This document shows positions 43,673 through 44,743 of a DNA stretch of 64,000 nucleotides, piece by piece; the stretch's first letter is position 1, and the number at the start of each line of letters is the position of its first letter. The position numbers were made by a program, and so were the translations under genes. The DNA is from Mageeibacillus sp. UBA5439 (lineage in GTDB: Bacteria > Bacillota > Clostridia > Saccharofermentanales > DTU023). The DNA lies in the NCBI GenBank assembly GCA_002427505.1, contig DIRJ01000038.1, forward strand, positions 45,659 to 109,658, read 5' to 3'. The notes below the pieces were generated by a model. It saw nothing but the letters and a program-made list of their open reading frames with translations, was not told the origin of the DNA and did no database searches.

Positions 43673-44743
43673 TTAGTAACGGAAACGAGCTGCAATTCTC
43701 TTTTCCATTTCCTTCACGGAAACCGGAACCATGACCACATTGCCTGCCATCTGGAAACAGTCACGAACAAGTTGGTCCAATTCCTCCCTCTCTTCATCAC
43801 AGTAATCACTGCGGATATACAATGTTTCGATCTTACACTCGTCCGCTGCATTTTTTATGTCACTCATGCGAGTAGATGCCTTGCCGTCAGCCAAACCTTT
43901 GGCCAGACTGTCCATTCCTCTTTTTATTTCCTCATTCTGGATATTGTCAAAAATATTAAGGATCGCTGCTTTCAGACTTTGTGGGTCAAAATCATGGAGC
44001 GGCTTGCCCAGATCTTCTTTAAGGTATACTTCATTTGTCGCGACCGAGCGCCAGTCCGCCATGTTTTCGCGAACTCCCGACAAGATAACGGGCGATCGTT
44101 TGTCGGCAAAATACGCTGTCAGATTTTCTTCCAGATATCGATAATACTTGATCTTATCAATTTCTTTCATTTCTGCAGCAGAGCGGTGACCATGAAATGC
44201 TGTGCCGCCTTTGCCGCCGTAGCTGCCGAAGTTCACATCGGAGTCAGGATCCAGATCAGGGAATAATTCCGTAAAGGTCAGGATCCCATGATCCTCAACC
44301 ACTTTCAGTTTTGATCCGTCCCCACGATGAAGACGGAAGCGGTCTCGGCCTATATCCAGAATATAGTGGCTGGATATATGTTGTTCAGCAGCCAGCAAGG
44401 GCAACAAATGCAGAATTCCCTGTACTACTACCAGATCATCTACAGCTTCGGACAAGTTGTAGATCAGCATATTCCTGTCTCTTAAGAAAAGAGCAAAGGC
44501 TTCACTTCTGTCATTCCAGAAAACGGTATCTTTCTGCAGGTCCTGCAGAAGCTCCATCTGTTCCTTCAGCGCTTTTCGATCCAAATATTTTGCCAGTTTT
44601 TCTTCTGCTTCCTTAATCAGATTCTTGAAACGAATGGCATTGGATCCCGGATCGGATCCTTCATGCGGAGTAGATTGATAGAGTGATAAAACTGTAGCAG
44701 CTTCATCATTCATCTTGCGGATTTTAGGGTGAAGTCTGTCCAT
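43673..44743 (-). CDS. bacterial eRF1/Pelota-like (baeRF-type) protein of unknown function
   Basis: [36 protein letters not shown] parallels the eRF1 GGQ loop region. The following regions parallel the end of the eRF1 M domain and the C domain. The N-terminal [31 protein letters not shown] resembles bacterial baeRF families. See findings. Confidence 0.6.
   Translation of the reverse strand: [356 protein letters not shown]

Follow-up and report, generated by a model that had tools for sequence, protein, structure and literature searches.

The gene and its family

The stretch of DNA analysed here, 64,000 nucleotides of contig DIRJ01000038.1 from Mageeibacillus sp. UBA5439 (hereafter the window, in whose numbering all positions are given), carries on its minus strand an open reading frame (ORF) at 43673-44743 with an ATG start and a TAA stop, coding for a protein of 356 amino acids. 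It lies between a divergently transcribed cyclophilin gene upstream and a cytidine deaminase gene (cdd) downstream. The ORF, its Pfam and NCBIfam matches, profile searches, an AlphaFold2 (AF2) model and Foldseek comparisons identify a gene of the Balon family (baeRF-1 clade), encoding a predicted A-site ribosome hibernation factor of a short form without the β-hairpin insert of the C domain. A preliminary description of this DNA, made from its letters alone, had already delimited the same ORF, and the peptides it quoted are all present. It had also proposed homology of the product to eRF1, Pelota and the bacterial baeRF proteins, which is confirmed by four Pfam families above their cut-offs and by profile matches to Balon, Pelota and aRF1.

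Among the Pfam models, against which the preliminary description had suggested a search, the protein scores above the gathering cut-off (GA) with baeRF_family6 (58.6 bits, GA 27.5), baeRF_family8 (56.7 bits), baeRF_family3 (48.5 bits) and baeRF_family7 (38.4 bits). These matches all fall on residues ~125-300, and no single family claims the protein cleanly, families 6, 8 and 3 lying close together; judged by these scores, the likeness to baeRF is far beyond chance. The sole NCBIfam match is NF052287, "AOC03_06830 family ribosome hibernation factor" (E=2.4e-21), AOC03_06830 being the protein renamed Balon (PMC10901736). On this model the relatives P0009, P0017 and P0046 score 90, 134 and 185 bits and Psychrobacter Balon itself 506.7 bits; unlike the present protein, for which families 6 and 8 are the best Pfam matches, Balon belongs with baeRF_family3 (105.6 bits), the Balon sequence used for this scoring having been rebuilt from a profile alignment to 8rd8_B.

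A word-indexed search for homologues gave only 8 and then 17 proteins, and an exhaustive search, which returned 4883 cluster representatives at E≤1e-3, was needed to reveal the family. Likewise, a single-sequence phmmer search against the PDB gave nothing significant and Balon was reached with profiles only. A small profile of nine sequences (the 356-residue protein and eight close homologues) finds 8rd8_B at E=5.4e-12, and a large profile of 123 relatives taken from the exhaustive search aligns with this chain, the Balon of Psychrobacter urativorans, end to end at E=3e-50. The large profile also reaches Msmeg1130 (1e-8) and Rv2629 (3e-4), a weak relation that is aligned in pieces; these two proteins have separate NCBIfam models (NF052288 and NF052289), neither of which is matched here. 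It further detects Pelota (3j15_A, 1e-8), with the likeness restricted to the M-domain helix and the C domain (profile positions 194-361), and the archaeal release factor aRF1 (8hku, 1.9e-5; 3agk, 1.6e-4). The three parallels to eRF1 which the preliminary description had drawn are reproduced by hhalign against human eRF1 and by HMMER alignments to Pelota (3j15_A, 3obw_A) and aRF1 (8hku). In hhalign the family profile matches a hand-typed human eRF1 sequence at E=0.0019, with KYYRYL paired with NYVRKV and the C-terminal IAARFRY with IGGILRY.

The AF2 model computed from the 123-sequence alignment is of high quality, with a predicted local distance difference test (pLDDT) score of 91.3 and a predicted template modelling (pTM) score of 0.85; a model from the nine-sequence alignment (pLDDT 62.8) was set aside. 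When the structure search proposed in the preliminary description was carried out, with Foldseek against the PDB, the three Balon chains (8RD8, 8RDV and 8RDW, chain B) ranked first (E=5e-21 to 8e-20, the best at 4.7e-21; template modelling (TM) score 0.66). The highest whole-chain TM scores were those of Msmeg1130 (8V9J and 8V9L, 0.72-0.73) and Rv2629 (8V9K, 0.68), and the whole-chain alignments to the three proteins run over 380-403 columns. Full-length chains of aRF1, eRF1, Pelota and Dom34 come lower (E=3e-13 to 1e-5, TM 0.22-0.49). Since the Balon-type chains match best over the whole chain, the model takes the domain arrangement of ribosome-bound Balon, and as modelled the protein is built of three aeRF1-like domains (N, M and C) in that arrangement. 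The chains 8rd8, 8rdv and 8rdw B carry the depositors' molecule name "Methyl-accepting chemotaxis protein", with Balon named in the entry title, so that looking for it in the PDB by molecule name would miss or mislabel it.

Balon and the 356-residue protein share a three-domain aeRF1-like architecture that is alignable from end to end, a flexible loop at the GGQ site, the lack of GGQ and NIKS, and a C-terminal A-x-x-RY ending. With aRF1/eRF1 and Pelota/Dom34 the protein has in common a homologous M-domain helix and C domain. Unlike these it has no GGQ, NIKS or Pelota loop A, and its host is a bacterium with the classical RF1 and RF2. It has the standard three domains of the baeRF-1 clade (Pfam baeRF_family1-12), and like that clade it lacks the catalytic Gln and has basic residues after the M-domain loop. 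The gene thus encodes a divergent but otherwise ordinary member of the Balon/baeRF-1 family and not a new kind of factor.

That no baeRF protein has an experimentally defined function, as the preliminary description had it, is outdated, Balon, Msmeg1130 and Rv2629 being known since 2024 as A-site hibernation factors on the evidence of cryo-electron microscopy, genetics and biochemistry (PMC10901736). In cold shock as well as in stationary phase, Balon sits in the A site of ribosomes, whether these are vacant or translating (Helena-Bueno et al., Nature 2024, PMC10901736). Its binding is independent of mRNA and takes place via an "HP motif" of the N domain; Msmeg1130 and Rv2629 bind the same A site and were both tested in a green fluorescent protein (GFP) translation assay; and Balon-deficient and wild-type P. 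arcticus were compared in their recovery from long stationary phase (PMC10901736). Balon homologues occur in ~20% of representative bacteria (PMC10901736).

Loops of the M and N domains and the C-domain insert

Residues 162-188 (44180-44261, minus strand) form a loop of the M domain with the motifs GSYGG and [FY]HGH, placed by the AF2 model, by column frequencies among the 123 relatives (the sample for all frequencies given below) and by the eRF1 register. It is modelled as coil (pLDDT 54-66) between a short helix (157-160) and a long one (189-215), and in profile alignments the latter is homologous to the helix which follows GGQ in eRF1. The loop is positionally equivalent to the GGQ loop of eRF1 and would, by analogy, correspond to the lasso loop that in Balon runs round A2602 in place of GGQ (PMC10901736). 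The preliminary description had placed this glycine-rich loop correctly, directly before the long M-domain helix as in eRF1, but its reading of the local GGT as a GGQ with Gln replaced by Thr finds no support. In the columns of G179, G180 and T181 only 23%, 22% and 15% of the relatives have the residue of this protein, and gaps are frequent; moreover, when the hhalign register is carried on without gaps, by extrapolation into the loop and not by alignment there, eRF1 Q185 comes to lie opposite H184 and not T181. A reading of GGKGGT as a degenerate GGQ was rejected on the strength of these variable columns and this register.

What is conserved in the loop is G177 (77%), H184 (87%), G185 (91%) and H186 (61%), and the family signature reads GSYGG-x(3-9)-[FY]HGH[RG], retained in Clostridia, Bacteroidota, cyanobacteria, Desulfobacterota and others; [FY]HGH occurs in short and long forms across phyla. 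The loop is in this respect better conserved than those of baeRF families 1, 2 and 6, for which "poor conservation" is reported (Burroughs and Aravind, 2019). Its length varies widely within the family, that of Balon being ~9 residues shorter. In the helix after the loop, basic residues are conserved at R202 (79%) and K199 (68%). The strings GGQ and NIKS, by which class-I release factors are recognised, are absent from the 356-residue sequence, and Gln is conserved in no loop column; because there is no catalytic Gln, peptidyl-tRNA hydrolysis is unlikely, as the preliminary description had argued from the sequence. A long-form relative from Tissierellaceae (locus L008) has an M-domain loop which reads GSYGGVGGQPMFHGHGG, with a literal GGQ just before FHGH; none of the relatives listed next to it has this GGQ, which is probably due to chance.

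The N-domain loop, residues 20-33 (44645-44686, minus strand), aligns in HMMER with Balon residues 17-34 and has the same length as the Balon loop with KTHREHPAND. We take KTHREHPAND to be the decoding-centre loop with the HP motif, the residue numbers of which are not given in the Balon paper. The family consensus at this loop is T(93%)-H(67%)-R(63%)-x-x-P(56%). In the 356-residue protein and its nearest relatives the loop reads TPHEGS instead of the THREHP of Balon, with the His shifted by one position and the Pro elsewhere. In the next clade out, at 38-40% identity, His and Pro are mostly lost altogether, and most other short-form members retain THRxxP, so that the loop of this protein appears from its sequence to be derived.

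P115 (~44399-44401), the Pro of F-H-x-x-P-L, is with 94% more strongly conserved than any other residue in the family sample, and the corresponding position in Psychrobacter Balon is Asp (FATRDL). Going by the sequences, the best-studied Balon is atypical at P115 as well as in its missing HGH.

In the C domain, the segment L308-V326 (43766-43822, minus strand) comprises 19 residues against 39 in Balon. HMMER alignments place inserts of 20-24 residues in Balon (8rd8_B, 20 residues) and Msmeg1130 (8v9j_z, an insert of its own of 24 residues) which are absent here. We take the absent insert to be the β-hairpin that Burroughs and Aravind (2019) describe in many, not all, baeRF-1 families, and it is probably also the β-loop of the C domain with which Balon touches EF-Tu(GDP) (PMC10901736). 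An HP motif and a C-domain insert are listed among the features common to Balon, Msmeg1130 and Rv2629, and Balon further has a bL27 trap loop (PMC10901736). However, as the insert is found in many but not all baeRF-1 families, its absence does not exclude membership of the Balon family in the broad sense. Going by length and a rough neighbour-joining tree rooted on Balon, the protein sits in a clade that is purely short-form (57/57 tips) and that, clustered at 50% identity, has 57 clusters or more. In species-representative genomes, of which 80 loci were compared, the short form is limited to five loci (L001-L005), all Clostridia.

Genomic neighbourhood

The gene is separated by 194 nt (44744-44937) from the divergent cyclophilin gene (PF00160, 44938-45474), with which it has this intergenic region in common. 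In an alignment of four orthologous loci, a TATAAT box (44844-44839, 96 nt 5′ of the ATG) and the ribosome-binding site GAAAGGG ahead of the Balon-like gene are kept, as are the blocks CTAAGTTTACACTAA, TATAATCCTGCYGTGACAGAAAG, ATCTGYTARAAT and AACGATCTG; TAGAAAGGGC is, with TATAATCCTGCYGTGACAGAAAG, a further conserved block of the region upstream of the gene. Judged by their conservation these blocks could be promoter or operator elements. A consensus scan called no full or convincing sigma-70 promoter upstream of the gene and no good -35 element. No Rfam elements were found at 42-46 kb of the window, and PADLOC defence-system models gave no match. Further upstream lies, also divergently, a gene for a pyridoxal phosphate (PLP) enzyme of Cys/Met metabolism (PF01053, 45502-46773).

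Downstream on the same strand follows cdd (43202-43660), which codes for a tetrameric-type cytidine deaminase of 152 aa (TIGR01354, 130.5 bits with a cut-off of 113.65; PF00383). In the spacer of 12 nt (43661-43672, minus strand), AAGGAGTTAATA, the ribosome-binding site for cdd comes right behind the TAA of the Balon-like gene, with the Shine-Dalgarno sequence six bases before the cdd ATG. No terminator was called between the two genes, and none can fit in 12 nt, as the preliminary description had observed. The two genes are, on this evidence, very probably co-transcribed. Behind cdd, after a gap of 280 nt with a promoter-like site (TTGACA-17-TATGCT, 43067-43039), lies a gene for an Rrf2-type regulator (42921-42526, minus strand).

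Among the related loci, cdd adjoins the gene in three alone (L001, L002 and L003), with orthologues that are 88, 81 and 76% identical and come from metagenome-assembled genomes labelled Clostridiaceae, Eubacteriales and Mageeibacillus. The spacing of 12-13 nt is found in these three loci too, and their surroundings agree throughout with those in the window, including the genes for a peptidyl-prolyl isomerase, Rrf2, a short-chain dehydrogenase/reductase, ThiD and others; cdd was nearby in none of the other 76 loci. The co-transcription with cdd put forward in the preliminary description stands as very probable here; a conserved partnership is not seen in these loci, and we read the adjacency as clade-specific, inherited gene order that says little on function. 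The gene upstream is a more durable neighbour than cdd, as the PLP enzyme is retained down to 40% identity (L001-L004, L081-L083). The survey of orthologous neighbourhoods which the preliminary description had proposed brought up no widely conserved partner among the 80 loci, the largest neighbour cluster comprising nine loci and being of a kind unrelated to translation. HPF/RaiA was detected near a related gene only at the edge of one locus (L048), and none was found in the window, in both cases with hand-typed query sequences, although one window of 64 kb cannot speak for the whole genome.

Some more distant relatives have other surroundings. P0009 (40% identical; L081) has an intrinsic-terminator-like hairpin 3′ of the gene at ~5190-5232. 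The four contigs with P0009 (L081-L084), and L004 as well, all break off 250-315 nt beyond the Balon-like gene, and these shared contig ends suggest an assembly-breaking repeat; Rfam searches of the tails of L004, L081 and L082 found no elements and no rRNA or tRNA. With P0159 (38% identical), a class-A β-lactamase-like gene (PF13354) ends 20 nt upstream on the same strand, an arrangement seen in three independent contigs (L085, 3192-5143; L086; L087), and it is possible that the pair forms an antibiotic-stress operon.

Predicted function and its alternatives

By analogy with its best sequence and structure matches, the protein is likely to be a Balon-type A-site ribosome hibernation factor. 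In stress or stationary phase it would enter the ribosomal A site as a mimic of tRNA or eRF1, with the N-domain loop touching the decoding centre without reading the mRNA, the flexible M-domain loop (GSYGG...FHGHR) docking beside the peptidyl-transferase centre near A2602, and the C domain facing the GTPase-associated centre. No peptidyl-tRNA hydrolysis would be expected at the docked loop, because the GGQ glutamine is absent. Occupancy of the A site would block translation and shield the active sites of the ribosome until growth resumes. Binding is expected to proceed without EF-Tu, or via a different surface, because the C-domain hairpin that is probably Balon's contact to EF-Tu(GDP) is missing; a Synechocystis homologue of Balon found on hibernating ribosomes without EF-Tu (2026 preprint) fits this prediction. 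A promoter within the 194 nt upstream would, in this clade, serve both the gene and cdd. We infer ribosome binding, the contacts of both loops and the stress-linked expression by analogy to the studied factors, and for the baeRF-1 clade as a whole Burroughs and Aravind (2019) predicted non-catalytic negative regulation or shutdown of translation.

Several observations weigh against this assignment. Identity to Balon is only 19%, and the score of 76.6 bits on NF052287 lies far below the equivalog cut-off of 330, so that the protein falls outside the narrow equivalog; it is because of this low score that its orthologues are named "hypothetical protein" at NCBI. The insert with which Balon probably contacts EF-Tu(GDP), a β-hairpin of the C domain, is lacking, and the N-domain loop has T-P-H-E-G-S and not THRxxP, with residues that are found in only 4-14% of the relatives. 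The conserved [FY]HGH motif, conversely, is not present in Psychrobacter Balon. Finally, the neighbourhood has no RaiA/HPF or Hsp20-type stress genes, unlike many reported Balon loci, and it differs from the baeRF-1 clade in having no HPF neighbour. The short-form clade might be a mechanistically distinct branch of the Balon family, namely an EF-Tu-independent A-site factor whose [FY]HGH loop acts at the peptidyl-transferase centre or the tRNA CCA end in a way that Psychrobacter Balon does not, together with a decoding-centre loop remodelled in this lineage, but we regard this as unlikely.

The preliminary description had favoured a Pelota-like role in ribosome rescue or sensing, in which the protein, as a non-catalytic factor of the Pelota/Dom34 kind, would occupy the vacant A site of ribosomes that have stalled and help to split or recycle their subunits, instead of keeping them in long-term hibernation. 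Such a role is possible, and the compact C domain recalls Pelota in lacking the Balon-specific insert, the profile running ungapped to 3j15_A in that region (E=1e-8); a catalytic Gln is missing, as such a role would have it, relief of stalled ribosomes like that by Dom34 is one possibility raised for baeRF-1 by Burroughs and Aravind (2019), and the Synechocystis preprint of 2026 likens Balon to Pelota/RRF with regard to a possible reactivation. The whole chain, however, fits the Balon type far better than Pelota and Dom34 (TM 0.66-0.73 against 0.22-0.39), and a Pelota-type N domain with loop A is not found. No Hbs1-like GTPase or ABCE1 was identified among the annotated flanking genes, no partner is widely conserved in the 80 loci, and the bacterial relatives studied by experiment are all hibernation factors. 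With the best matches in sequence and structure being hibernation factors, hibernation is the better supported role and rescue or stall sensing is improbable.

H184, G185 and H186 rank with the best conserved residues in the family, which might also be taken to mean that [FY]-H-G-H has a chemical role on the tRNA CCA end or at the peptidyl-transferase centre, such as peptidyl-tRNA hydrolysis by a His-activated water. HGH stands immediately before the long M-domain helix, the extrapolated register sets Q185 opposite H184, and the motif is retained in short and long forms across phyla. Yet Psychrobacter Balon, which lacks it, occupies the same binding site, U2585 keeps Balon's loop outside the catalytic centre (PMC10901736), and the highly variable loop length is a mark of inactive families according to Burroughs and Aravind (2019). 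As the loop has no conserved Gln and its register is extrapolated and not aligned, a catalytic factor is very unlikely. A still more doubtful idea is that of a functional module with the cytidine deaminase, in which ribosome shutdown or turnover would be coupled to pyrimidine salvage. The gap of 12 nt, the ribosome-binding site directly after the stop codon and the equally tight spacing in three other genomes would suit it. Against it stand the restriction of the adjacency to orthologues at 76-88% identity whose entire surroundings are shared, its absence in the 76 other loci, the terminator-like hairpin after P0009, the β-lactamase-like gene preceding P0159, and the ordinary nature of cdd as a TIGR01354 enzyme, so that a module of this kind is highly improbable.

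With the Balon-type hibernation factor as the favoured assignment, the analysis closes an annotation gap, in that orthologues named as hypothetical proteins are placed by profile and fold in the Balon hibernation-factor family. The general view of baeRF proteins is not altered by it, and the interest that remains lies with the short-form subgroup and the [FY]HGH motif. As this motif is missing from the one well-studied Balon, work on that protein cannot reveal its role. The short-form subgroup, sizeable and lacking the probable EF-Tu hairpin, would be a natural test of whether recruitment by EF-Tu is essential to hibernation of the Balon type.

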